From UHGV virus genome UHGV-1351772: 64,000 nucleotides of DNA. One strand, 5' to 3'. Below, piece by piece: positions 3,681 to 59,349 of the stretch (positions are counted from its first letter, which is position 1; each line of letters begins with the position of its first letter). The notes under the pieces were generated by a model, which was not told where the DNA came from, did no database searches, and saw nothing but the letters and a program-made list of their open reading frames with translations. The position numbers and the translations under genes are program-made. The stretch comes from a virus.

Positions 3681-3756
3681 TGGCGGGGGTGGGAAGTTTC
3701 GAACTCCCAACCTTCGGTTTTGGAGACCGCTGCACCACCAATTGTGCTACACCCCC
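3681..3756 (-). tRNA. tRNA-Trp: tRNA-Trp (anticodon CCA), 76 nt with encoded CCA end
   Basis: manual cloverleaf fold of the minus-strand sequence GGGGGTGTAGCAC...CACCCCCGCCA: 7-bp acceptor stem, D-stem GCAC/GTGC with G18G19, anticodon loop CU-CCA-AA, T-arm GGGAG-TTCGAAA-CTTCC, discriminator G. Confidence 0.85.
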
Positions 3757-24008: not shown

Positions 24009-24812
24009 TTACCACTTCCCGTTACCTAAACCCATAACACGCAGGTTAGTTTTCTTATTAGCGATGGCCAGGTACTCCTGCGCTAACGCACGAACTTCAC
24101 CACGACGAGATTCTGTCGCGATAGTAGACGTAGTGTTAGGATTTCGCAGAATGTCCTCCAGCGCCTGGAGGGAGACGCGACGGTCCAGCAGAACGCGTGT
24201 GGATTCTTGAGCCACTTTACTACCGCGTTGAATCGCAGAGTATTTGTTACAAATCTGCAACCCGTCCTCGATAACCCAGTCAAACGTTACCAGGCGATCC
24301 AGGCGACGCGTTTTCACACCACCTACATAACCTTCACGCACGATTGCACGCAGAGAGAAACACACATTCTGGTGTGGGTTTTCGAGCGCTTCTGCTAAGT
24401 ACGGACCACGTTCACGGTTCGGCTTAATCCAGCCCCAGATTTCCATAACCGGCAACCCGTTACAGGTTTGGTCGGTTGGAATCACTTCAACTTCACGAAT
24501 GTGCATACAGACGTTTTTCGTCTCAATCCATTCGTTGCGATCAATCCATTGCGCTTCGGTCATACCAGGTTCTGGTGCTGGGTGATCTTCTTCCCCGAAC
24601 AGATTCCCTGCCTTCACTTTACGCATAAAGATATTCGAGCGTTCGAATACGTGCTTAGACTCGTTATAGGCGTAAAAAATCCCTTCCGAGTTAAAGATAT
24701 TCAAAGCACCCAATAGTACGCGGTAATAACCATCCGCGTCTTTCTCCAGTGTGGCTGGAGCGTTAACACCGGCTAACGCTACGCAGTTGTAACGCAGTGT
24801 TAAATTGTCCAT
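24009..24812 (-). CDS. hypothetical protein (267 aa)
   Basis: six-frame ORF. Confidence 0.55.
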   Translation of the reverse strand: MDNLTLRYNCVALAGVNAPATLEKDADGYYRVLLGALNIFNSEGIFYAYNESKHVFERSNIFMRKVKAGNLFGEEDHPAPEPGMTEAQWIDRNEWIETKNVCMHIREVEVIPTDQTCNGLPVMEIWGWIKPNRERGPYLAEALENPHQNVCFSLRAIVREGYVGGVKTRRLDRLVTFDWVIEDGLQICNKYSAIQRGSKVAQESTRVLLDRRVSLQALEDILRNPNTTSTIATESRRGEVRALAQEYLAIANKKTNLRVMGLGNGKW

Positions 24813-24843: not shown

Positions 24844-25578
24844 TTACCTCATAAACAAATCTTCGAGCGGTTCGGCACGCACCGGGTCAACCTGTAGCGC
24901 AGAACGAATACCACGTTTAAGTTCTACGTCTGCAAGTTTCGCCAGTCTCGACGTTTTGTTAAGTGAACCACTGCGCAACGGAATAAACTGCACAGGGTTG
25001 TTAAGATCGCTATCTTTCTTCAGCGTGTAACGGAAGAACGTTCTCGGATCACCTACTTTACGCTGCGTGTGTGCTGCGTAAACGTCAGCGGTAATCTGAT
25101 CGGCAAATACAGTAAAACCGTTCCATTTCTTGACTTTATCAGGTGCCAAGAGTTCAGCATCATCCGCTGCAGTAAACCAGAAAGGACGATTACCAAAGTC
25201 GTAAATATACGACGCAATGTTGTAAATAGGGTGAGACAACACCTGTAAATTGCGGTTGGGGAAAACCACTGTACCGGGATCAAAACGAAATTCGTAATAA
25301 GGAACGCCAAAGACGTCGATCTCTTCAAACGCCGTTGGGGTAATTTCCATAAGCGTTGTCACGCTGGACACCCCATATGTTTTACGGTCGGTAGAAATCG
25401 CAAAGATCCCTACAATTGTTACCGTAGAAGAAATAACCGCCAACTCCTTCGCCACAAACCCAACGGGGATGTAAATGTAACACCCCCCTTTGGTAGTGGT
25501 GACCGTGCCGTTATTTACCAAGTCCGCATGAACCTTAGTAGGGTCACGACGGGCTGTTTCAATCGCACTCACGATCAC
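24844..25578 (-). CDS. hypothetical protein (244 aa)
   Basis: six-frame ORF. Confidence 0.55.
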   Translation of the reverse strand: MIVSAIETARRDPTKVHADLVNNGTVTTTKGGCYIYIPVGFVAKELAVISSTVTIVGIFAISTDRKTYGVSSVTTLMEITPTAFEEIDVFGVPYYEFRFDPGTVVFPNRNLQVLSHPIYNIASYIYDFGNRPFWFTAADDAELLAPDKVKKWNGFTVFADQITADVYAAHTQRKVGDPRTFFRYTLKKDSDLNNPVQFIPLRSGSLNKTSRLAKLADVELKRGIRSALQVDPVRAEPLEDLFMR

Positions 25579-27388: not shown

Positions 27389-30300
27389 TTATTTAAGTGT
27401 CGCGGGTAAATCAGGCACAGCCTCCCCATCGAGTATACGCCCGATGAGAATCCCGGCTTGTTCACCTACAGCATTCGCGGTACCGATACGTTGGATTGAA
27501 CCTACGATACGCGCATCGACGGAATCACGACCGAACAACACGTCCAGGTCATCACCATCCTCTGTTTTGTTGTCGCCGTACATGACTTCTTGTACGGTGG
27601 TTTTTAGCTGGTTAGCAATAACCATCTTATCCGCAGCGGCCATCTCAACGTCGTGTGTAATAAAGAATCGAACACAAAGTGAGTTAAAGGCCAAGGGTAC
27701 ACCTTCAACACGGTAGTCGCCGTTTACACTGCCTGAAACCGGATCACCGCGTCCGACTGCCAGTGCGGCCTTACGACGAATTCTGTCGTATTTACGCACC
27801 AGTTCAGCAAGACTTGGTGTCATGTCTTCGGTTTCACCGTGATACACCACTTCGATTTTATCCACGATACCACGTACCCCTGCACGAGGTGCGTACGAAC
27901 TTAAACTTTGCAACGTTGCGGCTGCTTCCTGACTAAAGGCACTCATATCGCCTGTCAAGTCGTCAGTAAACGTGCATAGGATTGTGTCGACGTCTACGTG
28001 GTCGCCCTCATTCACGATTTCCAAAAGCATTTGGTTGCTGTTAATCGTTACTTCTTTCAGCTTTGTTACCTGCCCCACCATTTTCTTCGCGAACCGTTCA
28101 GAAATTGCGTTGGAGTCTTCGATAACTTCTTCAGCTTCTAATAAAGCAACGGTAGCCAGCACCCCGTTTTTCCAGGAAACCTGAGTAGGATCGTAAATAT
28201 CAGGTTCAAAGTGTTGCTCGTTATACGTAATCACTGCTCCGGCCGGGAGCTTGTCACCGGCTTTCCAGCGTGTTACCAAGGTGTGCGGATAGAAGGTACC
28301 TTCGTGGGGGCCGAACCAGCGCCCTAGAGGAAAGGCTTCTTTACTTCCATCTTCGTACGTAATTTCAATGTGGTCTTTCGACAGACCAGTAATCTTACCT
28401 GCTTTATCAATAACGCGTGCATGTTTCACCGACGTACGGTGTGCGACGAATTTCTCCTGTTCAGTACGGTACGGGGTTGTGGTTGCCCCATTACAACTGG
28501 TGGCAGAACCTAACTGAATCCCAACGAAGTTTTGACGCTTTGCGTCGTCCATTAACGTATCGGGTACTAACCCGTCAATAAACGAAAGGGTATCGCTTGG
28601 TTTCGGGGTTTTCTCTTCACGTTTAAACGTAGTACCGTCAACGGTGTCAAAACGTGGGTTATTGGTGACGAAAGCAGTAATACCTACGTCGCCGTTATCT
28701 ACGGTGTTACCCGAGACTATCCCGATATCGCTGGGTTGGAACTCACGTGTGTGGTAGACCATCGTTTTACGATTACGACCACCTGTACCCCCCATCGTAA
28801 TAACGTCTTTTTCTTTAATTGACTGGATAGGGTTAGCACCTGGTGCCAAAAGTACCGACGGGTCGGAGTTAATTGCACCCCAAACCATGTCTTGCGTCAG
28901 TTCGAACTTACGGTTACTGCCCGGTGCGTTATTGTAGTTACGCATCGCTCTGACCATCGCGGTATAGATGTGGTAGGCAATCCTCTGATTTCCTAAGAAC
29001 ATCATTTCATCGCCGTTAATCTCTGGTAAAGAGTGGTCAGTTTGTAACAGTTCGTTAGAACGTTCCAGCAAGCCAATAAAGGTTTCCGGCTCACCCATTT
29101 TCCTGAGGATACGTGCGTGCATGTCGTCAACAAACGCGGACCGCATCTGTTTCAGCTCGTTGATGTACCGTGGTGTTAGGCCATCTGCATCACGTAATAA
29201 GTTCAGGTAAATGTCTTCACGGTCTGCTTCTGATTCGGTATAAGCAACCAGGTGTTTGAGATAACGATCCAAACCATGCAGAATCATCTTCTGTTGATCG
29301 TTATCGCAAGTAACTAAAAGTTTACAGTCTTGTAGTCGAATAATGCTGTCGTAGGCATTCTTATCAACACGTTGCCCTGCGGGAACCAACTCGTATTGGA
29401 TACCGAAATGTTTCAACATTCCCTGGAGTCCAAGATAGAACGAGAAGATAAAACCAAGCGACAAAGATTTACCCATCAAAGACAGCTCGGTCATTTCGCG
29501 AGGCACTTTCTGGTTATTAAAGCCCAGTACCTCTGCGATAGTTCCCACCGGTTCAACTTTGTTTCCGTTCACACCGTAAAGCATGGATTTGTCATCCATT
29601 GCCAGGATTGTTTCACTACGCGGACGTTTCGCCACCGGCAAAAGTTTGGCAGCATCGGCGTCTCTGAGTTGCTCGTCGTTAAAGAAGTTAACGGCTTCTT
29701 TGTAGTCGAAGTTCCACATATAGCCGTTCGCATTAAAGCTGGCAATACGACGCGCAATCTCCGTATACTGACGCGGCAGATGTTGCGTAGGATCGAACAC
29801 ATTTGCTAAACGTGCGTCGGTGACTTCGGTGTTTGTCGGGTCAACGGCGCGTGTGATGATCGCATTGGTTAACCAACGACCGTAGTCGTTTGCGACCTTA
29901 TCACTACGACGGACAAAGTTTTTACCGTAAGCGGTAGTCAGTGCGACAGTATCCGGTGCAACCTTACGGATCGGTAAGTCCACACGTTGCCGACGCATGG
30001 TGTATTCGACACCATTAGCGACCCAGGTACCGTCTTCGGTCAAGCCTGGGATGGAGAAGCGAACGGTTGTTGGTTCACCACCGACTGGCTGAACACGTAA
30101 AGTGTGGTGCTCGATAGTCCCTGTAACAGAAACCTCTTTTTCCACCGTGTGGTTGTGAACTGCCAGACCCAAACGTTGTGAGCTGGCGACCGCCGCCAGT
30201 ACGTCCTTCGTCATCATGGTCTGGTTGTACTGTTTCACCATCTGGTCGGTGACGTTCTCTGCCCACCCTTCATCAGTAACAAGTCGCTGAACTTTTTTCG

Positions 30301-31555
30301 GTTCGGCTTTAACGACAATATCTTTCTCGTGAACAGTCAGTGCTTCCCCGTAGGTTTCTTTCGGGTTATACGGGTTAGGTAACTGAACGAAACGTTTAGA
30401 CGATTCTGACAGGAACTGATATGCTTTAGAACTTAAGCGGCCCGCTTCAGCTAAGCGTTGTGCTTCCTGTTTAATAATCTCGTCATGCGGAATGACTTTC
30501 TCGACGACGATAGTCGTCGGTTTGACGTCTTCCTTCGGTTCTTCAATAACAACGTCTTCTTTTTCATCGAAGGTGTTATCGGATTCGACCACAGCGTCAT
30601 TAACAACGTCGTCATCATCGACAACATCAACGGTTTCTTCTTCGACGTCTTTAAGGAAAACACGCTCGTCGCCTTCAGGCGTTAGGAATTCCGCTTCGTA
30701 CGCGTTAGACGGTGCTTGTGTCATTACACGCACCAGCGTACGGTAGAACATCCTGGCCATTTGGTCGTCACTTAAACGACCGCCGGATGACTTACGCATT
30801 TTCTCTACAACACCCATGTTCATGGACGTAAAGCCCGTGTTGTGGGTGAAGATAAAGTTCATTCGTGACAGCTGAGTTAAATCCATTCCCGCGAATAAGG
30901 AATCGGATTGTTTTCCATAAGCCCAAGCAAACAACTCCAATAACCACAGCAAGTTGAAGTCCTGGAACTTCTCAATCTTACTCTTAACGCGATCGTTATA
31001 GGTTGTTTGAAACTTCTGGAACGAAGGTAGAGTCGAACCTAGTTCAATAACGAAATAGTTCTGACGCATGTATTCTTGCGTGTCGTATTTGAACTGGTTA
31101 ATCATCAACAGTTGGATGTTACGCAGTCTATCGTACCAGGCTAACTGGGTATCAGGATAGTAATAGTGCGATAGCATCGGTGTGTAGTTCTCGACCAGGA
31201 GAACTTTTAAGTCTTTGCGAACCAGATCGTCTGAGGTAAGACGACGCATCGGTCGGTTTGCACGGTGGTAAGCAAAGATAGCACGTTCTTGCCCCTGAAC
31301 AGGTTTGTTGCGCGGATGACCGCTAATACCGTCTTCCGGTAATTTAAAGTGGTGACGAACCTGTGCAGGTTTTTCTAACGGTTGAATAATCTCGAGTGTT
31401 GCAGGTGGCGCTAACACCACCTGGTCGAGATCAATGACATGGAGTACAGAACCACGTGGTATCTGTAGCTTCTCGAGCGGGATAATCCTCGGATTACCAA
31501 ACTCGTCAGTTTTACGCACCGAGAAGCGTTGGTTAAACTGTTTAATGAGCAGCAT
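27389..31555 (-). CDS. large protein (1388 aa), tentative partner subunit of a phage multisubunit RNA polymerase (beta- or beta-prime-C-like), contains an acidic low-complexity insert
   Basis: located 9 nt downstream of the beta-prime-N-like gene; weak GDK-containing stretch reminiscent of the beta subunit; otherwise unassigned. Confidence 0.55.
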   Translation of the reverse strand: MLLIKQFNQRFSVRKTDEFGNPRIIPLEKLQIPRGSVLHVIDLDQVVLAPPATLEIIQPLEKPAQVRHHFKLPEDGISGHPRNKPVQGQERAIFAYHRANRPMRRLTSDDLVRKDLKVLLVENYTPMLSHYYYPDTQLAWYDRLRNIQLLMINQFKYDTQEYMRQNYFVIELGSTLPSFQKFQTTYNDRVKSKIEKFQDFNLLWLLELFAWAYGKQSDSLFAGMDLTQLSRMNFIFTHNTGFTSMNMGVVEKMRKSSGGRLSDDQMARMFYRTLVRVMTQAPSNAYEAEFLTPEGDERVFLKDVEEETVDVVDDDDVVNDAVVESDNTFDEKEDVVIEEPKEDVKPTTIVVEKVIPHDEIIKQEAQRLAEAGRLSSKAYQFLSESSKRFVQLPNPYNPKETYGEALTVHEKDIVVKAEPKKVQRLVTDEGWAENVTDQMVKQYNQTMMTKDVLAAVASSQRLGLAVHNHTVEKEVSVTGTIEHHTLRVQPVGGEPTTVRFSIPGLTEDGTWVANGVEYTMRRQRVDLPIRKVAPDTVALTTAYGKNFVRRSDKVANDYGRWLTNAIITRAVDPTNTEVTDARLANVFDPTQHLPRQYTEIARRIASFNANGYMWNFDYKEAVNFFNDEQLRDADAAKLLPVAKRPRSETILAMDDKSMLYGVNGNKVEPVGTIAEVLGFNNQKVPREMTELSLMGKSLSLGFIFSFYLGLQGMLKHFGIQYELVPAGQRVDKNAYDSIIRLQDCKLLVTCDNDQQKMILHGLDRYLKHLVAYTESEADREDIYLNLLRDADGLTPRYINELKQMRSAFVDDMHARILRKMGEPETFIGLLERSNELLQTDHSLPEINGDEMMFLGNQRIAYHIYTAMVRAMRNYNNAPGSNRKFELTQDMVWGAINSDPSVLLAPGANPIQSIKEKDVITMGGTGGRNRKTMVYHTREFQPSDIGIVSGNTVDNGDVGITAFVTNNPRFDTVDGTTFKREEKTPKPSDTLSFIDGLVPDTLMDDAKRQNFVGIQLGSATSCNGATTTPYRTEQEKFVAHRTSVKHARVIDKAGKITGLSKDHIEITYEDGSKEAFPLGRWFGPHEGTFYPHTLVTRWKAGDKLPAGAVITYNEQHFEPDIYDPTQVSWKNGVLATVALLEAEEVIEDSNAISERFAKKMVGQVTKLKEVTINSNQMLLEIVNEGDHVDVDTILCTFTDDLTGDMSAFSQEAAATLQSLSSYAPRAGVRGIVDKIEVVYHGETEDMTPSLAELVRKYDRIRRKAALAVGRGDPVSGSVNGDYRVEGVPLAFNSLCVRFFITHDVEMAAADKMVIANQLKTTVQEVMYGDNKTEDGDDLDVLFGRDSVDARIVGSIQRIGTANAVGEQAGILIGRILDGEAVPDLPATLK

Positions 31556-31564
31556 TGCTTAGCC

Positions 31565-33184
31565 TTATGGGTTCTTTAATAACGCTTGCGTTGCACGTTT
31601 AATCACGTTGTTGATAGGATTGATTTTAAAGTTCCCATCAGAATCGAACCAGTAGTTTTTCGAGTGTATCCAGTTCCGGTTTTCCTCGAGCGCTTCCTGG
31701 GACATAGGCGCGTTAAACGACCCGGTATCGCCATCGTAGTCACCCCCTAAGCCACCTAGACGTGAAGGGTGTGGTGCCATCGACTCAACGAAGGTAGGAA
31801 CCGACCGGTCAGGGTAGCTGATAGCCCCTCGGGGTTTTTCAGTTTCCCAGTCATCTTCCAGTTCTTTTAAATATAAAGATGACGTGGTGGTCTCCAATCT
31901 TATGGTCGATGAATACGTCGAGCCTCGGCCTGTAACGGGATAACGTGTAACGAAACCGAAATAATCGTTCCAAAGTTCGTAGCCCGACAAATAAAGCAAT
32001 TCGACGAGTGTCATACCGTGGACGAATTTTCGGTCAAACGTTTTAGGAAGTTCTTCAATATCGTAGAACACCTTAAAATGTTTGGTGTCTTGGTAAACCA
32101 ACGCAACGTAGTGGGTGTCGTCCAACATAATCGGCTGATGGCGAAGCCCGCGAGCTTCCATTCGGTTGATTAAGGATTCAATCCCATCGTCGGTGGTGAA
32201 GGTGTCGTATACACGACCACCTACTTCCAAGAATTCACGTTTAAGGGTTTTGGTGTTTACGCCGTAAAGGTTGCCATCACCGGCACGGATGTTACCGAGG
32301 TAACGTTCACGTATCTGGTATTGGGCGACAGGGAGTAATGCTTTTAAACCCTGGTATAAACCAATTTTGGTGTCGGTAGGACGAATAGCGTCTTCACGAC
32401 CCATGCACTTAGACCCCGTCGAGAACGAGGACAGTACGTTACGTGTCCCGTTCATTAATTTACGAGACGTCACTTTACGACGTTGGAAACCCCCTTTACC
32501 GTCTTGGATGTTAAAGAAATACATCCAGATATCGTTGAAGGTTTGTTGCAGCTTCCAGCGTACGGGGTTAGTTAATTCAACACGGGTTGCCCGGTCAGGG
32601 ATCGCCCTGGCGAGAGATACCAACCGACGATACATCCCGCCGATTTCTTCTTCCTGTTCTCTACCATCTTGTCGAATTACTAAATCGCGTAAACCCGCGG
32701 GTAACACGAGAACGTATCGACTAAGACTAACGGGACGGAATTTCAAAAAGAAATCCACGGTTTCGTCACGTTGTAGGGACTCGTTACGCTTAGGTTTTAA
32801 ATCGTTATAGTGATTGAGGAAGAAGTTAAAACCGGTATCTGCGCCTGGGTCTCCCGGCAAGGCCGGTTCGAAATCTTTTTCTTTTTCGCTCCACGTTGCG
32901 TAGCGTTTTCCAGAACAAATTTCTTCGTAGAGTTGTTTGAGTTGGAATAACGCCAAACACACTGTCGGCGAAATGATATCGAGTTTAATATCGATATAAG
33001 AGAAAGTAGAGTCTCGCGCTTCACTCCCCGTGAGTCCAAATATCTCTGTAGAGTAAAGACCTTCGGGGTGAAAGTTTTTTGTTAACCCCTGGAAAGTATC
33101 CGTGGTCGTGACGGGTCGTAATCGCGACACAAGAGACTTGTTTACATTGAGCAGATAAAAGTCAACCCAATTAAGTTTATTCAC
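31565..33184 (-). CDS. multisubunit RNA polymerase beta-prime N-terminal fragment-like protein
   Basis: EGLYSTEIFG and IDIKLDIISPT resemble the beta-prime N-terminus (DGLFCARIFG / HIELASPTAHIWF); MYRRLV resembles DLYRRVI; C-terminal GGDYDGD matches the catalytic NADFDGD aspartate triad; GTG start with AGGAG RBS. Confidence 0.65.
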   Translation of the reverse strand: MNKLNWVDFYLLNVNKSLVSRLRPVTTTDTFQGLTKNFHPEGLYSTEIFGLTGSEARDSTFSYIDIKLDIISPTVCLALFQLKQLYEEICSGKRYATWSEKEKDFEPALPGDPGADTGFNFFLNHYNDLKPKRNESLQRDETVDFFLKFRPVSLSRYVLVLPAGLRDLVIRQDGREQEEEIGGMYRRLVSLARAIPDRATRVELTNPVRWKLQQTFNDIWMYFFNIQDGKGGFQRRKVTSRKLMNGTRNVLSSFSTGSKCMGREDAIRPTDTKIGLYQGLKALLPVAQYQIRERYLGNIRAGDGNLYGVNTKTLKREFLEVGGRVYDTFTTDDGIESLINRMEARGLRHQPIMLDDTHYVALVYQDTKHFKVFYDIEELPKTFDRKFVHGMTLVELLYLSGYELWNDYFGFVTRYPVTGRGSTYSSTIRLETTTSSLYLKELEDDWETEKPRGAISYPDRSVPTFVESMAPHPSRLGGLGGDYDGDTGSFNAPMSQEALEENRNWIHSKNYWFDSDGNFKINPINNVIKRATQALLKNP

Positions 33185-33260: not shown

Positions 33261-36200
33261 ATGGACGACTGGGACGATTTTGATGAGCCCCCTCGTCAAC
33301 AAGACCAATCGCGTAACCCGGTCATGGACACATTTCGTGCTGCCCGTAAGTCGGCGTTGTCGACTATCTGGCCCGAAAACAAACGTGATCAGGTTATTTT
33401 AAAAGGGATGCCTAAACCTGCGGCAGAAGCCTACGAAGGCTATCAAAACGTTAAAGCTGCAGGTCAAGACATTCTGGCCCATACGAAAGACGAGATTGAA
33501 AAGACGTCTCGCGTCGTCAAGATGCAAGCGAGACAGTTAGGTCCAACACTGAAACGGTATTTACCGGAATCCGTAACACGGAAAATCGACAAGTGGGCAC
33601 GTAACGATCAAATCGACTATGGGAATTACGATCCTAAACAAGCGATGATGGATCGTGAGCTGGACAGCGTGTTCTCAGGCGCACCGCAAACAGCGGACCA
33701 GCAACGTGAGGCGCAAGAGGGGATGGTTGAAGACCGCTTGCGCGACACGATTAAGGACATGAAGTCCGACGCACTGTTCCAGACCGTAATCGGTATTGCA
33801 AAAGACGTCAACTTAACGACTAGCCTAAGTCGTGGCGTGTTGTTGAATGTTCAGCGTAAGCAGTTAGAGCTGCAATATCGGACGCTGTTTGCTTTGCAGG
33901 ATATTGCGAAACTCAAACAAGACGAGTTTGCACGCAACACCCCGGCATTAGAAGCCATCGTTAAGAACACGGCACTACCCGACTACGCGAAGGAAGAGTT
34001 TTCTGAAATTCGTTGGGCTAATGTAAAACGTAAAGCTGCGGAGTGGATGAACCCCTTACACTACGCAGATAATTTCATTGGCCAGATTCGCGAAAACGCG
34101 AAGAAGAAAATCTCGAACATCTTTAGTGATGGTCGTGGGATTCTAGAACAAGTTCTAGGGATGGCTCAGGAAGATGACTTTGACATGTCGGACAGCTCAT
34201 CGTTGTCTCCTGACCGTCGTAACACAAACTCGCGTAATAAAGCGGCAGGTTTTGCAGGTGGTTGGTTAGCAAAACGTCTCTTACAACCCCAGATCGAACG
34301 ACTTCAGAACTGGACGCGTGGCGAGCTAGAGAAAAACCCAGAAGTCATGAAACGCCTACAGTTGGCGAAGTATGGCTTTGGAAATTTGTCGTCTATTTCT
34401 AACTCGGCAATAGCGGGAGAAACAAGCGGTCCGTTAGCTGATCTGTTTCGACTAATGCACGATTTGGGACTAGTTAACCCGCTACGTCGCGAAACCTTAG
34501 CATTAGACGATCGTTCTGCGGAATCTCTTTCTGCGGCGGCGAAGTTCGATCGTAAAGCTTACCTTAGTATCACAGAAGTTATTCCGACGTTACTGTCCGA
34601 GATTAACAAATCTATTCGTCGTGGGTATGGCGAACACCACGATCAGGTTTATGACCTGACCACGCGCGGTATGGTGGATCGCAAAGTTATTGGTAATCGT
34701 GTACGTAAGGCCGTTGCTAATGACGATCAGCGCAAACGTTTACAGACGTACATCAACGACACTGTCGACTTTATCGATAAAGATAAAACGCTCGATAGGA
34801 AAACACGTCAAGCGTTAGCGGACTACATCGAGTCTCGTGCCTCGGAAGGGAAAGCGTTCGATGTAGGGTCTTTATTGAAAGACCCGATGCACATGTATCG
34901 ATACATGAACGCAAACGCTGTGGAAGCGATTCAGGGTGTTTTAGAAGCCCGTTCTGCGGAACTGGTTGGCGGACACCATGAACTGAGTAATGCGATTTCA
35001 AACAAAATCGCCGCTATCCAGTCAACGATTCGTGCACGTCAAGACACGGTTGATGCTGCGTCTGTGATTTACGGCGAGAACGCACTTCGTGATTCCGGTA
35101 TTTTTAAATACGATGCGAAGAAAGACATTTTCGAGGTCGATAAGGACATTAACGATCCCTATACGTTATTTAATGACCTGTCGATGGGTAAGACCCGCTC
35201 TGGACGTTCGTTAACCCGTGAGCAAGAGATTCAGCGTAAATTGCAAAACGGTTCTGCGCTGGGTGATTACTTGCGACGGATGGGTGCAGGCGCAGAGCCG
35301 AGCTTTGAAGACAAAGAACTGTCCAATGTACGTGGCGGTGGAAAAGGAGGTCGTGGTCGCGGTTTAAGCGCACGCCAACTCGCTGCGGTACTTTATGGAG
35401 AGAAATCCACTAACTTTGTTGAACTGTTAAGCAGTCGTCCAGACACGAACGCCGGGTTGGAACAGCAATTCGACCGTTTGATTGATGCTGTACGTAAACA
35501 GCCCGAATCTAGCACAGTGCAAGATATCCTCAAACACGTTAAGAACATGGATGAGGAAGGTATTCTCCTAGCCAGTTTAGGCGGTAGTCGTGATGACGGT
35601 GACGAATCTGAAAGTTCGAGTGACTCGGGTCGTAAACGTCGTCGTAAACGCAAACGTATTGTGCTAGGCGAGACAGGCTTGTTACGCCGTTGGGCTGGGG
35701 TGCTTTGGGATACCGGTTCAGGTGTAGGGCGGTTTGGTAAGAATCTGTTCCTACGTGGGAAAGATCGTCTGCAGGCTTTAGGTGGTTTTATCCGTGGGAA
35801 ATTCTCAGGCGGCTCCTCCGAAGGACCCGGTGTATTTAGCCGACTGAAAGGGTTAGTAACAGGTACTCTATCGACAGGTTGGAATTCTGCTGTAGCTTTC
35901 GGTAAAGGCGTTTTAGGTGTTCGTGATATTTACGATGAACGTGGCAACGTCGTATTACAAGGAAGTCGTTTAGAAGCTGGGGAATATTACCAGGCTGACC
36001 CGAAAACTGAGAAGCTGATTCAACTTAAAACCCTCGACGATATTAAACTGGGACGTGATATTGTCGATGAAGCGGGTAATTTAATCTTAGCTGCTGCTGA
36101 TTTGGCTGCCGCAGGTAAACTGCGTTTCTACAAAGGTGGTAAAGTTCAAGCGCTTTTCCAGTACATTTCTGGGAAAGCAGGAACGGCGGTAAACAAAGCT

Positions 36201-39200
36201 GTGACTTTACCGAAGAAACTTTTAGGCTTCATTTCACCTAAAGCGGCTTCGTTGTTCGAGAAAGCACGTGAGTGGCTAAATGAGGTTCCAGAGGGCGCAG
36301 AGAAAACCCGTTTACAAAGCATGATTTCCCGTGTAACGGGAATGCCAGCGCGTTTGTGGAACAATGCAAAACGCGGGTTTGAGAAGCTCAAAGAGTTGGC
36401 TTCTGATAACCCTCTGACACGTTGGTGGCAGAACCGTAAGGAAGGGGGTTCTGGTGGTGGGTTTAGTGTGTTCTCATGGTCGAACGGCCGTAAAACTAAC
36501 CACATCTTAATCCGTATCTACAAACTCCTTAACCGGAGATTGCCAGGTGAACCAGAAGATGATACCTGGACAGAACAGATGGAGCGGAATACGGGAGCCA
36601 GTTCAGTTAAAGGATTATTCCAACGTGCTAAAGACATACGCGATGGGTTCCGTGAACATTTTCAGGGGTTCCGGGATTGGCGCGGTCGGATGCGTGACAG
36701 AATGTCCCGTTATCGCGGTGCGGTAGGCGATCGTCTTTCTCGTTGGGGCGGTACCGCACGTGGTTGGTTTGATCGTTTCCGTGGCCGTGCAAGCGATATG
36801 GTCGATACTTTCCGCGATCCGCGTTACGATATCGGCACACGTTATCGAATGGAGAGTCGTTTAGCAGGACGCGATGACGATGTTGCTGAGTTTTATCGTC
36901 AACACATCTACGCAAGAGGTAAGGTGTCTAAAACACGTATCATCGATGCGGCAAAAGAAGACTTAGACACCGTAACGGATAGCGCTGGACGTGTGATTAA
37001 TAAAGGGAAACAGAAAGCCCGTAGCGTTGGGTCAGCTTTACTGGAACGCCTGAACCGAATGGTTAATCTTCAGGAAATGTCATGGTTTAACACCATGCGT
37101 GATTCTGCGGAAAAAGCAGGTGCTTCGGATGGTTTGTTAAGAACTATGTTCAGTAAGTTCGGCCAACGCAATAAACCGCCTGCCAGTGATGAAAAACGTG
37201 ATTACTTCCAGTTCTTCCGACGCCGTCGTCGTTCTAAGGAAGAGGAAAAGGCTAAGAAAGAAGCCGAGAAGAAAGGTGGTAAGCGCGGGGTGATGGATTT
37301 CCTTAAAGGACTGCCGTTGGTAGGACCGATTGTGAGTATTTTAGGCACAGTAGGTTCAATCTTAGGTAAAGTCGCGAAATGGGGAATCTTTAAGCCGGTT
37401 GGGTTTGCAGGCAAAGCGTTGTGGAACGTTGGTAAGTTTGCTGTGACTCGTTTGGCTGTCCCTGCGGTGAGTGCTGTCGCGACGGCAGCATCTGCAGTGG
37501 TAACTGCGGTTGGCTGGCCGATTATCGGTTTGGTCGCTGCAGGCGCTGCGCTATCTTGGTTTGCATATAAAACTGCAACCCGTGTGAATGCTCAGTATTT
37601 GGATAACATGCGATTGGCACAGTACGGATTTAGAGATCACGATGAGTGGTCTTCCGACGATGGCGCAAAAGCACGTTATTTAGAAGACAACTTGAAACCG
37701 TACATCTCTTATACAGAGAATGGCCAAGCACAGTTGCGTGGTTTGTCCGGTGACGACGTGAAGAAACTGGCCGAAGGGTTTGGTACTAACGTAGAAGACA
37801 AAGGCGAAATGCTGGCGTTTAGTGCGTTTATGCTACAACGTTTTGTGCCGATCTATTTACGTTGGATTACGGCACTGAAATCCATGGATAATGATATCGC
37901 GTTAGCAGATGTCGGTAATCCTGCGAAAGTGTCGAAGGCAGACATGTTGAATATCTTCAACAAAATGAAGATGTCGAAAGATGCGCCTGCATTCCGTGCA
38001 TTAGAAGATCCCCGCAAGGTTAACCAAGGTTGGTTCTCTAAAGCGTGGGATTTCGTAACGTTTACCCCGGCCGAGTTTTTGTCAGGCGAAGAAGTCGTTG
38101 AAGCGCAAGAACGCGTGCTTCGTTCGATTAACATGCGTCGTGATGAAAAACGTAAGGATGTAAATGCTACAGGCGGTGTGGCCGAAGGACACAAAGTTGC
38201 TTCTGTGGCAGAATCGACCCAAGCGTTGGCTCAAGCGGATGCGGAACGCAACAAAGAAGTTGCGAAAGTCGAAGGTTGGGAAGACGGCACCGAACAAGTT
38301 CAGGTTCAAGTCGACTGGAGAAGCTTACCTAAAGAAACCGATCTCCGTGATTTGGAGTCCGTAAGGTTGAAAGCTTATGGTGCGGTGAGTATTACTCAAA
38401 CAACCCGTAACCTCTATACGCTCTTGGAACGTCAAGTGTTGCAAGACACCGATGTGAAAAGCTGTACGTATAAAGGCGACTGGAAACGTGCGATTGCGGT
38501 GATTGCGCCTGACGCCATTGGTGGGCCAAAAGAAGATCGGTACAAGAACTGGTTCTATAACCGCTTCTTACCTGTCTTCATGACGTACGTGGTTGGGGTG
38601 AAACGTTATGTCCCTGCTGCCGATCCGATGGACCTACGCGTTACGGGTGGGTTCTTGTATGAAATCGCACTGATGATGCGTGGTGCATACAACCTGAAAG
38701 GGGGTATTCGTCAGTCAGTGTGGGAGGTACCGTTTAACCCGTTAGGGGGAGACGCTAACACCGACGCCGGTTCAGTTGCAACGGAGTTAGAGAACCTGAA
38801 AGAACTGTCTAAGGAAGCTGATTTGGCAGTACGTAAAACGCTGCGTGCTACGCCTTCTGCGGGTTTCCGTGTGAACTGGCAGCGAAAAGATCGCGCGACT
38901 CAGATGTTCTTGACCGACGATGAGAAGGAGCAACCGTCTCGACCACAGATGAACACCTCCTCCTCTTATCGTGACCTATTGCAACCAGCGGCAAACGACG
39001 GTGGGAATTACGGCACACCAAACGATTTGGCCGGTGCTTACGGTCAGATGGGAGCTAAGAATTACGCTGCATTTACTACCGGTAACTTCGGCGTGAAACT
39101 TGGCGATATGCAAGACGGTGACTATAAAACGTTAGCGGCTAAGTATCCAATTTCAACGTTGGGTGACGGATTGAAGCCTAACTTGAATGCGGTTGCAGCA

Positions 39201-40337
39201 CTGATTACAGACGTAGCGAAGATGATGGGTGTTCCTCCAGCGTTAGCACTGGGAATGGCACAAGCAGAATCTGGGCTTAGATACGGTATCAAAGCTAAAG
39301 GAAGTTCTGCGGCTGGCTTGTTCCAGTTCATCAACGATACCTGGGGTGCGCAGATGAAAGCTTATGCGAGACGTTATGGTATCCCGCAAACCAACCAGTA
39401 TGACCCGTGGGCGAATGCTCTGCTTGGCGTCCGTCATATTCGTGATAATATCGAGAAAGCCAGAAAGGATTTAGGTGGTATCGATCCTCCAGGTGCAGCT
39501 GTTTACCTCTACCACTTCTTAGGACAAGGTGGCGGTAAGAAATTCCTGCAAGAATGGAAGCGTGATCCGAACGGGCCATCGTCGCGTGGTGCGTCGGCCG
39601 ATCAAATCGCGGCAAACAGCACAATTTTCTACAAGAATGGAAAATTGCGTAGTTTGGATGAAGTGCTCAACATCATGGGTGGTAAGATTGGTGCTGTAGG
39701 AACAAACGCGATCGCGGCTAACCAGGCATCGCTGAAAGACTTGACGACAGGCGTAACACCAATGCCGTCTTCCCCGGCTATCGCTGCAGGCGCTGCTAAC
39801 GATCCGTCTATCACAGGCCCGGCAGATAACCTGCCAGCCGCGAACGAGGCGAATCGCGACTCCGCTTTAGCAGACAAAGGCGCGATGGGTGCTGAAGATA
39901 TTAAAGCTGCAACTGGTGGTGGTCCGGCTGTGCCGAGTCCTGGCGGCGATGTCACGCCGAGCGATGCGTCAGTTGTTGTAGAGACGGTGGGTCAAAATGC
40001 ACGTGCTGATGGCCTGGCCGAAGAAGAGGTTGCTAAAGTAAAAGAAGGTGCTAGACAGCAGATGGAGAAATCGGCCCGTCCTGCACCAACGGTAACTTCC
40101 GATGCTCAGAGCGGTTCTACAGTGAACAGTGGTGATCCGATCAGTGTACAACAGCTGGCGGTTGCAAAAGAGTCTGCAGGCTATCTGAAAGAGATTGTAA
40201 CAATTCTTCGCCAGCGGCCACAGGCTATGCAAAACGGTCCGGCTAACCCGGCGTCAACCGCTCCGGGTTCGGCGTCACGTAACGTGTCAATAACTCAACC
40301 CGCGCCGCAACTCGACGTTAGTCGTAAATCAGCGTAA
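33261..40337 (+). CDS. giant virion-associated protein (2358 aa) with C-terminal soluble lytic transglycosylase domain; tape-measure/ejection-protein-like
   Basis: SLT motif GMAQAESGLRYGIKAKGSSAAGLFQFINDTWG near residue 2000; long hydrophobic block near residues 1340-1430; poly-basic tracts (RKRRRKRKR). Confidence 0.8.
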   Translation: MDDWDDFDEPPRQQDQSRNPVMDTFRAARKSALSTIWPENKRDQVILKGMPKPAAEAYEGYQNVKAAGQDILAHTKDEIEKTSRVVKMQARQLGPTLKRYLPESVTRKIDKWARNDQIDYGNYDPKQAMMDRELDSVFSGAPQTADQQREAQEGMVEDRLRDTIKDMKSDALFQTVIGIAKDVNLTTSLSRGVLLNVQRKQLELQYRTLFALQDIAKLKQDEFARNTPALEAIVKNTALPDYAKEEFSEIRWANVKRKAAEWMNPLHYADNFIGQIRENAKKKISNIFSDGRGILEQVLGMAQEDDFDMSDSSSLSPDRRNTNSRNKAAGFAGGWLAKRLLQPQIERLQNWTRGELEKNPEVMKRLQLAKYGFGNLSSISNSAIAGETSGPLADLFRLMHDLGLVNPLRRETLALDDRSAESLSAAAKFDRKAYLSITEVIPTLLSEINKSIRRGYGEHHDQVYDLTTRGMVDRKVIGNRVRKAVANDDQRKRLQTYINDTVDFIDKDKTLDRKTRQALADYIESRASEGKAFDVGSLLKDPMHMYRYMNANAVEAIQGVLEARSAELVGGHHELSNAISNKIAAIQSTIRARQDTVDAASVIYGENALRDSGIFKYDAKKDIFEVDKDINDPYTLFNDLSMGKTRSGRSLTREQEIQRKLQNGSALGDYLRRMGAGAEPSFEDKELSNVRGGGKGGRGRGLSARQLAAVLYGEKSTNFVELLSSRPDTNAGLEQQFDRLIDAVRKQPESSTVQDILKHVKNMDEEGILLASLGGSRDDGDESESSSDSGRKRRRKRKRIVLGETGLLRRWAGVLWDTGSGVGRFGKNLFLRGKDRLQALGGFIRGKFSGGSSEGPGVFSRLKGLVTGTLSTGWNSAVAFGKGVLGVRDIYDERGNVVLQGSRLEAGEYYQADPKTEKLIQLKTLDDIKLGRDIVDEAGNLILAAADLAAAGKLRFYKGGKVQALFQYISGKAGTAVNKAVTLPKKLLGFISPKAASLFEKAREWLNEVPEGAEKTRLQSMISRVTGMPARLWNNAKRGFEKLKELASDNPLTRWWQNRKEGGSGGGFSVFSWSNGRKTNHILIRIYKLLNRRLPGEPEDDTWTEQMERNTGASSVKGLFQRAKDIRDGFREHFQGFRDWRGRMRDRMSRYRGAVGDRLSRWGGTARGWFDRFRGRASDMVDTFRDPRYDIGTRYRMESRLAGRDDDVAEFYRQHIYARGKVSKTRIIDAAKEDLDTVTDSAGRVINKGKQKARSVGSALLERLNRMVNLQEMSWFNTMRDSAEKAGASDGLLRTMFSKFGQRNKPPASDEKRDYFQFFRRRRRSKEEEKAKKEAEKKGGKRGVMDFLKGLPLVGPIVSILGTVGSILGKVAKWGIFKPVGFAGKALWNVGKFAVTRLAVPAVSAVATAASAVVTAVGWPIIGLVAAGAALSWFAYKTATRVNAQYLDNMRLAQYGFRDHDEWSSDDGAKARYLEDNLKPYISYTENGQAQLRGLSGDDVKKLAEGFGTNVEDKGEMLAFSAFMLQRFVPIYLRWITALKSMDNDIALADVGNPAKVSKADMLNIFNKMKMSKDAPAFRALEDPRKVNQGWFSKAWDFVTFTPAEFLSGEEVVEAQERVLRSINMRRDEKRKDVNATGGVAEGHKVASVAESTQALAQADAERNKEVAKVEGWEDGTEQVQVQVDWRSLPKETDLRDLESVRLKAYGAVSITQTTRNLYTLLERQVLQDTDVKSCTYKGDWKRAIAVIAPDAIGGPKEDRYKNWFYNRFLPVFMTYVVGVKRYVPAADPMDLRVTGGFLYEIALMMRGAYNLKGGIRQSVWEVPFNPLGGDANTDAGSVATELENLKELSKEADLAVRKTLRATPSAGFRVNWQRKDRATQMFLTDDEKEQPSRPQMNTSSSYRDLLQPAANDGGNYGTPNDLAGAYGQMGAKNYAAFTTGNFGVKLGDMQDGDYKTLAAKYPISTLGDGLKPNLNAVAALITDVAKMMGVPPALALGMAQAESGLRYGIKAKGSSAAGLFQFINDTWGAQMKAYARRYGIPQTNQYDPWANALLGVRHIRDNIEKARKDLGGIDPPGAAVYLYHFLGQGGGKKFLQEWKRDPNGPSSRGASADQIAANSTIFYKNGKLRSLDEVLNIMGGKIGAVGTNAIAANQASLKDLTTGVTPMPSSPAIAAGAANDPSITGPADNLPAANEANRDSALADKGAMGAEDIKAATGGGPAVPSPGGDVTPSDASVVVETVGQNARADGLAEEEVAKVKEGARQQMEKSARPAPTVTSDAQSGSTVNSGDPISVQQLAVAKESAGYLKEIVTILRQRPQAMQNGPANPASTAPGSASRNVSITQPAPQLDVSRKSA

Positions 40338-57497: not shown

Positions 57498-58397
57498 TTA
57501 TTTCCCACGATAAAATCCAGAAATGTAACTCGGCGCTATCCATCGCCATTCGCGCCAGCGCATTTCTGACATCTTACCACACCATACACGCTTCCAATGC
57601 GCACGACGGATATGTGCGGCGCAATAAATCGCCAAACAAACCTCGTGTCCTTCCTTGCGTTGCTGTTCTATATCTTCCCATTGTACCGGACTTACATCTA
57701 AAACGACTGCTTCACTACGTGGGCGAATCTCTGTATCGGGAACATAACGAATGGTCCTTCCGCGAAATTCTTTCTTCTCACGTTCAGTACGTTTAATTCG
57801 TGACGAAAGGTATAGTCCGATATAGACAGCGTCGAGTAGTCGTTGATTCTCCTTAACCGAAATAAGGAGCGGCTTTAGCTCGACGAAATCATCTTTACTT
57901 TTATCGATTTTGTAAATCTCAAACTCCATGTATACCGATTCTTCACGTTCTTCGCATGACATCACAAAGAGAACTTCTTCGCCTTCGTAAAGACGTCTTC
58001 CGATAAATAACGTGATTGGACTTTCGTCGAGATTTACAGTAACCGAGAAAGTAAATGAAGGGATGGTTTCTATCCAGAAGTACGGGATGTTTTTTAGTCT
58101 CTCAGTTTTTGCTAAGAGTGCCATCAGTTCTTCATCCGAGATGATTTCAACAGCAGCGTATTGCCATCCTAGTCCCAGGGACTGCTTAATCAGTCTGGGA
58201 ATCTGTTCGGTAACGCCATACTCTCGATAGGTCGGATCTTTAACTGGCATAAACGTTACGGGTATTTGACGTTTATGCTCGTTAATGAACCGAATAAAGC
58301 GGCACTGATCTAATCCGTGAATTGTTTGGTGTGCCTTTTCTATTTGTTCGCTCATGCGTCTTAGCGCTTTCCCGTAAAGTCTATTATTCGTTGTCAT
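57498..58397 (-). CDS. hypothetical protein sharing a C-terminal AAHIRRAHW module with the upstream gene; possible tyrosine-recombinase-like fold
   Basis: C-terminal CAAHIRRAHWKRVW...W...Y; start ATG 58397 with AGGAG RBS (ORF extends to 58553). Confidence 0.55.
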   Translation of the reverse strand: MTTNNRLYGKALRRMSEQIEKAHQTIHGLDQCRFIRFINEHKRQIPVTFMPVKDPTYREYGVTEQIPRLIKQSLGLGWQYAAVEIISDEELMALLAKTERLKNIPYFWIETIPSFTFSVTVNLDESPITLFIGRRLYEGEEVLFVMSCEEREESVYMEFEIYKIDKSKDDFVELKPLLISVKENQRLLDAVYIGLYLSSRIKRTEREKKEFRGRTIRYVPDTEIRPRSEAVVLDVSPVQWEDIEQQRKEGHEVCLAIYCAAHIRRAHWKRVWCGKMSEMRWREWRWIAPSYISGFYRGK

Positions 58398-58422
58398 TTT
58401 AATACTCCTAAACACTTTTAGC

Positions 58423-59349
58423 TTAATTGTGGGGTACGTAGCCACGGACAAATGTAGGTGGAATCCAACAAAGTTTTCTCTTTCTTTCACCATTTCTAGG
58501 GCCGACCCAATATCTGCGCCAGTGAGCGCGACGGATGTGGGCAGCCTTAGCATGTTTGATACCCTGCATGGTTTTCAAGTCAGTGTTAAACCCTTTTAGA
58601 TAATTCACTTGTCCTGGCGTGATATCTATCTTAACATCGCGTTCACGAGGTTTAACGTCGTAGCTAATACTACCGTTCTTTTTGATTTCTTTGAACTTAA
58701 TATCATTAAAAGACTCCCTGTAATTGGGCGGGATTAGCGTACACAGAAATATCATCGAAGTAGCGGCTTTGGCCAGAGATAACCATAGCATCTTTTCTTG
58801 TTCGTTCTCCACACCGTCGGCATAGTCGATTTCCACAAGCCCGTTTCCTGCGCTACGAAGCTCTAACGAACAAGTGGCAATTGTGGTAACGCCTTCTGTT
58901 AACCCGTAATCAGTATTTGTAGCAATTATAATAAACCTTCTCTTCCCGTTTTTTCGATAGCCGAGAAAGAAAGTCTCATCCTCTTTACCTACGTCGATTG
59001 CTACAGTCCAAGTAGGTATAAAGTCCAACCATTCTTCAGGGAATTTACTGGGCATCTCAGTCTCGAAAACAAGTTCTCTAAGTGCTTGGTTGGATATTAA
59101 GGAAGCACCACCGTATAGCCATCCAATTGCCAATGTTTGAGCGTGAAGGGAACGGGGATCTTTGAGACCTAACTCAGCGTCGTAAGGTATAAAGGCATTG
59201 GTTAAATGGTTACGATTCTTTTTTATCCATTTCGAGACAGGATTTTCCTTTATTCGGTTTTCTTCCATGACATTTTCAAGATGCTGAGACCCCATTTGTC
59301 TAAGGCAGTCTTTAATACCTTTTACTTTTTTACTTTTGTACAAATACAT
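58423..59349 (-). CDS. hypothetical protein with C-terminal AAHIRRAHW module; possible tyrosine-recombinase-like fold
   Basis: C-terminal KAAHIRRAHWRRYWVG...LCW...VRGY; AGGAG RBS 8 nt upstream of ATG. Confidence 0.6.
   Translation of the reverse strand: MYLYKSKKVKGIKDCLRQMGSQHLENVMEENRIKENPVSKWIKKNRNHLTNAFIPYDAELGLKDPRSLHAQTLAIGWLYGGASLISNQALRELVFETEMPSKFPEEWLDFIPTWTVAIDVGKEDETFFLGYRKNGKRRFIIIATNTDYGLTEGVTTIATCSLELRSAGNGLVEIDYADGVENEQEKMLWLSLAKAATSMIFLCTLIPPNYRESFNDIKFKEIKKNGSISYDVKPRERDVKIDITPGQVNYLKGFNTDLKTMQGIKHAKAAHIRRAHWRRYWVGPRNGERKRKLCWIPPTFVRGYVPHN

Follow-up and report, generated by a model that had tools for sequence, protein, structure and literature searches.

Genes for two subunits of a split, probably virion-packaged RNA polymerase in the genome of a phiKZ-related jumbo phage

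The two reading frames and their relation to cellular RNA polymerase

The subject of this report is a pair of adjacent genes occupying positions 27389–33184 of the window, i.e. the whole 64,000-nucleotide stretch of virus genome UHGV-1351772 that was analysed. A sequence-only reading of this DNA had described there two open reading frames (ORFs), of 539 and 1388 residues, and had taken them for parts of a phage-encoded, split multisubunit RNA polymerase (RNAP); both ORFs are present in the ORF list exactly as claimed, and profiles, folds, PHROG families and orthology all agree with that view of them. The explanation that best fits the evidence described below, to which we would give a probability of roughly 0.95, is that they encode the N-terminal piece of beta-prime (beta-prime N) and the large N-terminal piece of beta (beta N) of a virion-packaged split multisubunit enzyme, the virion RNAP (vRNAP), of a jumbo phage resembling SPN3US and phiEaH2. 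Both lie on the same strand, the 539-residue ORF being upstream and starting with a GTG codon preceded by an AGGAG box, while the 1388-residue ORF starts with an ATG 9 nucleotides past the TAA of its neighbour. Coordinates of these and related features are collected in Table 1.

Searched singly, the 539-residue protein gave little: there was no match in a Pfam search, and a phmmer search against PDB sequences produced only marginal matches, located at the DxDGD segment (E 0.35). Among the PHROGs it matches phrog_2986 ‘RNA polymerase beta subunit’ (E 6e-233), and its full-length matches are homologues of 537–545 residues. A family alignment of 30 sequences (lowest identity 38%), used as a profile against PDB sequences, gave RNAP matches with E-values ranging overall from 1e-13 to 1e-5, comprising the beta-prime N chain of the non-virion RNAP (nvRNAP) of AR9 (7s00/7s01 chain d; E ~1e-13), plastid beta-prime and cyanobacterial gamma (E ~1e-9) and many bacterial beta-prime chains (E ~1e-6). 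Structure prediction points the same way. An AlphaFold model of the protein (mean predicted local distance difference test score, pLDDT, of 80.8) yielded 569 Foldseek matches in the PDB at E ≤ 0.001, and the 50 best listed are all RNAP entries, with chain labels that correspond to beta-prime or gamma wherever those chains were named in the profile searches.

The protein also agrees in detail with cellular beta-prime. HMMER alignments against plastid, cyanobacterial and bacterial beta-prime contain four landmark blocks, which occur in the cellular order. In the first of these (the block GLYSTEIFG), FHPEGLYSTEIFG aligns with DGLFCERIFGP of beta-prime, and in the second VLPAGLRDL...EIGGMYRRL aligns with VLPPELRP...DINELYRRV; the third (GKGGFQRRKV..R...GTRNV) and the fourth (GGDYDGD...P.S.EA..E.R) are similarly aligned with the cellular protein. 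This agreement is far above anything expected by chance. The fourth block includes the catalytic, Mg-binding motif DYDGD, and the C-terminal segment of the family aligns to residues 447–507 of E. coli beta-prime, which is the NADFDGD region. Residues D482, D484, G485 and D486 are invariant in the 30 homologues, and position 483 is occupied by F in 20 of them, by Y in 8 and by H in 2; since the AR9 nvRNAP beta-prime chain, for which there is a solved structure, likewise reads DYDGD in the profile alignment, the change from F to Y at this position is to be regarded as a normal variant. The C-terminus of the protein lies 53 residues beyond the motif. With its landmarks in order and with profile and fold matches in support, the earlier description of this protein as an N-terminal beta-prime fragment ending soon after the aspartate triad is confirmed: it is a beta-prime N piece, split after the barrel where the beta-prime of cyanobacteria and plastids is split. 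Cysteine residues occur in it only at positions 76, 90 and 260, and it lacks those of the zinc finger of cellular beta-prime.

The 1388-residue protein is the less obvious of the two. It gave no match in a Pfam search and nothing significant in a single-sequence search against the PDB (spurious matches to laccases appeared at E ~0.2–0.9), and it was because single-sequence searches are uninformative in this case that its core motifs had been called only weakly recognisable. That description was a fair one for such searches; family-profile and structure-model comparisons identify the protein as beta. It matches phrog_3148 ‘RNA polymerase beta subunit’ with E 0, and a profile of 18 sequences, searched against PDB sequences, gave 44 matches at E ≤ 1, all of them to RNAP beta chains and none to beta-prime, the best being Thermus beta (1iw7_C, E 3.6e-11). 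The profile alignment consists of four collinear segments, in which residues 504–526, 906–966, 981–1102 and 1295–1386 of the phage protein correspond respectively to residues 117–139, 396–457, 530–653 and 822–916 (GDKLANRHGNKGV) of Thermus beta, the last of these segments being the second double-psi beta-barrel (barrel B).

Within barrel B, AADKMVIANQLK of the phage protein is aligned opposite GDKLANRHGNKG of beta, the motif DKMVIANQLK being the counterpart of the bacterial GDKxxxRHGNKG, and K1310 and K1318 are invariant in the 18 homologues. Equally invariant in these are E1146 and D1147 of an EDS motif, which we take, from our own reading of the motif rather than from alignment output, to be equivalent to E813 and D814 of E. 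coli beta (GYNFEDSILVSERV). An AlphaFold model of residues 441–1388 (mean pLDDT 73) was also compared using Foldseek, and all 50 of the best matches listed are RNAP entries carrying a beta chain label (C or I), with a best E-value of 1.6e-16. Taken together, these results establish that the protein is a homologue of beta comprising the conserved N-terminal region through to double-psi beta-barrel B; approximately the last 200 residues of beta are missing from it, and are found on a separate protein of 222 residues.

An alternative that had to be considered here is that the 1388-residue protein represents the C-terminal complement of beta-prime, carrying the trigger loop, bridge helix and jaw, in which case the two genes would together make up one split beta-prime. 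The genes are adjacent and only 9 nucleotides apart, and the adjacent arrangement of rpoC1 and rpoC2 in cyanobacteria could be counted in favour of such a view. Against it stand the following results: the profile finds beta and never beta-prime among its 44 matches and runs collinearly with Thermus beta 117–916, all 50 listed fold matches are labelled beta, the ED and DK...K motifs are of the beta type, and the SPN3US orthologue gp241 has been assigned as beta N (PMC5105663). The beta-only matches by profile and by fold refute the alternative, to which next to no probability can be attached. The suggestion in the sequence-only reading that the larger protein might be the complementary subunit consequently needs to be divided: that it is an RNAP subunit stands, on profile and fold evidence, while its identification as the other half of beta-prime does not, the matches being to beta only. 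The outcome that had been named as refuting the original reading, an absence of profile matches to the double-psi beta-barrel domains of RNAP, did not occur: both proteins match RNAP in the profile comparison, and also in the fold comparison.

Assignment to the virion polymerase

Megablast and tblastn searches find the nearest relatives of the locus in Seoulvirus and Erskinevirus (hosts Salmonella and Erwinia), with more distant homologues throughout the phiKZ-like phages and in AR9. At the DNA level the locus is only ~75% identical to those records of the phage collection that come nearest to it, and the proteins closest to both subunits, at 94–97% identity, come from Salmonella enterica assemblies. 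The source of the window is a jumbo phage that resembles SPN3US and phiEaH2 and belongs to the phiKZ-related group, and both orthology and gene order agree with the phiKZ-like jumbo phage origin originally proposed.

It follows from the existence of such close relatives, with orthologues at 77–86% identity that have been studied experimentally, that the feature is already a known one, and dozens of GenBank phage records annotate these genes as RNAP subunits. In SPN3US, gp240 was assigned as beta-prime N, gp241 as beta N, gp42 as the middle piece of beta-prime (beta-prime M), gp218 as the C-terminal piece of beta (beta C) and gp244 as a candidate C-terminal piece of beta-prime (beta-prime C), and mass spectrometry found all five in virions and in tailless heads (PMC5105663), meaning that virion proteomics has already been carried out for the pair that is 86% and 77% identical to the present one. 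Gene 241 is essential, its amber mutant being lethal and the mutant head losing every vRNAP subunit, and Thomas et al. (2016) proposed that the enzyme is assembled before packaging (PMC5105663). For phiKZ, gp180 co-precipitates gp178, gp80 and gp149; each virion contains ~10 copies of it, and at infection it passes into the cell, as seen by western blot and using an mCherry fusion (PMC10612078). Early genes are transcribed by the vRNAP from AT-rich promoters without host RNAP, early transcription in phiKZ being independent both of host RNAP and of new protein synthesis; the enzyme has no alpha, omega or sigma, and its beta-prime split site is common with that of cyanobacteria (PMC7598289, PMC13282480).

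By extension to the present phage, the 539- and 1388-residue proteins would form, together with a 222-residue beta C, a middle piece of beta-prime whose gene lies outside the window and, probably, a 244-residue protein, a core without alpha, omega or sigma. This core would be assembled late in infection and then packaged in the capsid, and it would be ejected with the DNA and go on to use AT-rich promoters for transcription of the early genes, without need of host RNAP.

Phages of this group possess a second enzyme, and it might be asked whether the genes could instead encode subunits of the nvRNAP, which is made early, serves for transcription of the middle and late genes in the phage nucleus and is not packaged. 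In phiKZ the nvRNAP set consists of gp55, gp74, gp71-73, gp123 and gp68. Both enzymes are composed of split beta and beta-prime homologues with a DxDGD-containing beta-prime N piece, and the best PDB matches of the 539-residue profile are indeed to the nvRNAP beta-prime N of AR9; among jumbo-phage RNAPs, however, solved structures turned up for nvRNAPs only. Against this, the orthology and synteny are with phiKZ gp180/gp178 and SPN3US gp240/gp241, all found in virions; tblastn with the 539-residue protein gives just one place per phiKZ-like genome, the paralogue being too diverged to be matched; the neighbouring genes form a block coding for structural proteins of head and tail; and a long beta N extension is described for the vRNAP subunit gp241 (PMC5105663). 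An nvRNAP assignment was rejected on the grounds of the matches to gp180/gp178, the single tblastn place and the structural-gene neighbourhood, and we regard it as very improbable.

A different objection would be that the proteins are catalytically dead derivatives of RNAP, retained as structural or ejection proteins in which only the fold has been kept. Identity to cellular RNAP in structural alignments is as low as ~12–14%, the beta-prime zinc-finger cysteines are absent, and vRNAP activity has not been shown in vitro (PMC7598289), all of which could be accommodated by such a view. It is nevertheless extremely improbable, because homologues down to ~20–40% identity all keep the catalytic residues unchanged (the three aspartates, the ED pair of beta and the two barrel lysines) and because the orthologous gene 241 of SPN3US is essential (PMC5105663); early transcription in phiKZ, proceeding as it does with neither host RNAP nor new protein synthesis (PMC7598289, PMC13282480), also speaks against it.

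Returning to the vRNAP assignment, there are a number of points that must be weighed on the other side. The barrel B segment is weak when taken alone in the profile search, having a domain independent E-value (i-Evalue) of 24, and the assignment of this barrel draws mainly on collinearity, the invariant lysines and the fold search. TM-scores in the Foldseek comparison are low (~0.3), although isolated, extended subunits can be expected to give such values. For the present proteins, packaging, ejection and transcription of early genes would follow from orthology alone, purification of a vRNAP had not been achieved up to a 2020 review (PMC7598289), and the structures that turned up for jumbo-phage RNAPs are of nvRNAPs, none of a vRNAP having been found. 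Lastly, a profile of 18 sequences of the 244-residue family matched no RNAP chain among PDB sequences at E ≤ 10, its best match being to a helicase loader (8v9t_V, E 0.005) and probably due to chance. Nothing among these points actually contradicts the vRNAP assignment.

As to what the locus may contribute, its value is mainly for annotation: of the five vRNAP polypeptides known, four can be given genes in the window, namely beta-prime N, beta N, beta C and, as a candidate, beta-prime C. The enzyme class itself is of biological interest, being a minimal two-barrel RNAP that has no alpha, omega or sigma and must traverse the phage tail; the present locus is one more close ortholog, and adds nothing further to the vRNAP question. 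It bears on a single biological question, that of what part the beta N extension and the gp244-like protein play.

The beta N extension, further subunits and neighbouring genes

The N-terminal extension of the 1388-residue protein runs from residue 1 to somewhere between ~440 and 500 (the first alignment to beta begins at residue 504), includes an acidic low-complexity linker at approximately residues 300–345, and is conserved also in phiKZ gp178; cellular RNAPs contain nothing that corresponds to it. When residues 1–300 (window positions 30656..31555) were searched against 1.84 billion representative proteins, they were found in 429 of these; among the 150 matches listed, 148 consist of a single stretch, which is N-terminal in every case, and in the listed matches the extension occurs nowhere other than at the N-terminus of the beta N family. 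The proteins that carry it fall into three length classes, of ~550, ~1050 and ~1400 residues. One 551-residue member that was compared stops exactly at the conserved beta motif RQRVD (window residue 526), and one of 1055 residues stops at the conserved beta motif DD|AKR, near window residue 1003, which suggests that the shorter classes may reflect introns or extra splits in the beta N genes of relatives. As a separate observation, the deposited beta N sequences of the Salmonella phages SPFM12, SPFM1 and SPFM6 are of the right length, yet they match the query only in ~13 short stretches of high identity or over 2–5% of its length, which seems due to poor or scrambled sequence in the deposits rather than to biology.

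Targeting to the head (capsid) has been proposed by Thomas et al. as a role for the N-terminal extension of gp241, and the idea of the extension as a dedicated module was thus raised earlier by the SPN3US authors (PMC5105663). In a wider form of this idea, the extension might be a module that recruits the pre-assembled polymerase to the procapsid, that guides its ejection and refolding, or that replaces alpha as an assembly platform; such a proposal is a tentative one, which we would sooner doubt than assert. The gene in the window is intron-free, full-length and close to that of a genetically tractable phage, so that the idea could be tested there.

Besides this pair, the window contains the gene for the beta C of the enzyme and that for the candidate beta-prime C. 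The 222-residue beta C, encoded ~20 kb from the beta-prime N/beta N pair, is equal in length to SPN3US gp218; in tblastn searches it matches PHIKZ149 (36.5%, E 6e-34) and a virion structural protein of SPFM4 (83%), while a single-sequence search of the PDB gave no match for it. Its segment SGVSFPEAYIMYSDGHDWTLKEFL resembles, on our own reading, beta region I. The 244-residue virion protein is 86% identical to SPN3US gp244 and 31% to phiKZ gp176, and its true start may be a GTG at codon 3, since its homologues begin at the equivalent of that codon. Its family has been put forward as the candidate beta-prime C of the vRNAP (PMC5105663, PMC7598289), the claim for gp244 being based on an HHpred E-value of 0.05 and on its co-loss from gp241-minus heads (PMC5105663). 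When the remaining large ORFs of the window were compared with the PHROGs, only the 222-residue beta C was found, and no beta-prime middle piece of the SPN3US gp42 type; similarly, none of the ORFs scanned has a PHROG match to alpha, omega or sigma, this search covering 64 kb of a genome of roughly 220–240 kb.

Table 1 Features of the RNAP locus and related genes in the window, with the basis for each assignment.
Feature	Position	Strand	Basis or remarks
vRNAP beta-prime N-terminal subunit, 539 aa	31565..33184	(-)	ORF; double-psi beta-barrel A; ortholog SPN3US gp240, phiKZ gp180
Catalytic Mg-binding motif DYDGD (D482, D484, D486; residues 482-486 of the 539-aa protein)	31727..31741	(-)	Translation
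vRNAP beta N-terminal (large) subunit, 1388 aa	27389..31555	(-)	ORF; ortholog SPN3US gp241, phiKZ gp178
Phage-specific N-terminal extension of beta N, residues 1 to ~440	30236..31555	(-)	No similarity to cellular beta
Beta ‘ED’ acidic pair E1146, D1147, within EDSNAISERF of the 1388-aa protein	28115..28120	(-)	Translation
Double-psi beta-barrel B motif DKMVIANQLK (D1309, K1310...K1318) of the 1388-aa protein	27602..27631	(-)	Translation
vRNAP beta C-terminal subunit, 222 aa	53801..54469	(-)	phrog_3233 ‘RNA polymerase beta subunit’, E 6e-93; ortholog phiKZ gp149
Candidate beta-prime C, 244-aa virion protein	24844..25578	(-)	phrog_2926; ortholog SPN3US gp244, phiKZ gp176
Prohead maturation protease, phiKZ gp175 type, Peptidase_S80	24009..24812	(-)	Pfam PF20034, E 1e-82; phrog_3014; synteny with phiKZ
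2358-aa virion protein, phiKZ gp181 / SPN3US gp239 type	33261..40337	(+)	Pfam SLT, residues 1983-2069; phrog_3201; synteny

The RNAP genes lie between the head-protease block and the gene for the gp181-type lysin (Table 1), among genes for structural proteins of head and tail. The gene for the 2358-residue protein is divergent from the RNAP genes, and its product, which has been called a ‘tail fiber’ in other annotations and ends in an SLT lytic transglycosylase domain, is a cell-puncturing or lysin protein of the phiKZ gp181 type.

Two observations from elsewhere in the window may be recorded here. Its sole tRNA is a tRNA-Trp (anticodon CCA) at 3681..3756 (-). The adjacent ORFs at 57498..58553 and 58423..59349 (-), of 351 and 308 residues, overlap and both match phrog_6160 (of unknown function), so that they appear to be a tandem pair of paralogues; because the overlap amounts to 131 nucleotides, it is suggested that the downstream ORF, 57498..58553, was started too far upstream by the program.

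Comparison with known systems

Of the systems available for comparison the closest is SPN3US, whose gp240 and gp241 (537 and 1401 residues) are 86% and 77% identical to the window proteins over their full length, and which shares the DYDGD variant. The gene order is also the same, running in SPN3US from gp239 (lysin) through gp240, gp241, gp242, gp243 and gp244 to gp245 (protease). SPN3US is a distinct phage, but no functional difference from the window genes is apparent.

In phiKZ, gp180 and gp178 are 32% and 30% identical to the window proteins from end to end, including the beta N extension, and the same order is again found (gp175 protease, gp176, gp177, gp177.1, gp178, gp180, gp181 lysin); the gene order at the locus is shared by phiEaH2 as well. 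There are, however, two differences. The motif is DFDGD in phiKZ as against DYDGD in the window, and the phiKZ beta-prime N gene is interrupted inside this catalytic motif while that of the window is continuous. In the phiKZ sequence (NC_004629, 16159..19259 (-)) the gp180 ORF stops at ...LGAD, and its continuation, FDGDTVSFNAVYSEEAIAE (FDGDTVSFN...), resumes past gp179, an endonuclease-like ORF of 357 residues lying between the two parts of beta-prime N. As read from the sequence, this arrangement implies that an intron lies inside the DFDGD codons of the phiKZ gene.

Among solved structures the best match is the nvRNAP beta-prime N of AR9 (PDB 7S00/7S01 chain d), for which the fold E-value is 3e-15 alongside the profile value of 1e-13, and this fragment likewise ends past DYDGD. 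It differs in belonging to the paralogous nvRNAP, in having only ~14% identity and in being shorter (426–448 residues in the deposited chains).

Of the cellular enzymes, cyanobacterial gamma (RpoC1) and plastid RpoC1 resemble the phage protein in that beta-prime is split shortly past the NADFDGD barrel, a coincidence of split sites that has been noted for phage beta-prime and cyanobacteria (PMC7598289), and they are among the top matches both by profile and by fold. They are, however, parts of cellular enzymes that have alpha2, omega and sigma together with zinc-binding cysteines, whereas the phage protein is without those cysteines and phiKZ-like phages have, according to the literature, no homologues of alpha, omega or sigma (PMC7598289). 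For beta the corresponding comparison is with Thermus thermophilus (1IW7 chain C), to which the window protein matches collinearly across residues 117–916 of the bacterial chain, the fold search giving only chains labelled beta. Relative to bacterial beta in general, the beta N of the window has an additional ~500 residues at its N-terminus, is without approximately the last 200 residues, and has AADKMVIANQLK in place of GDKxxxRHGNKG.

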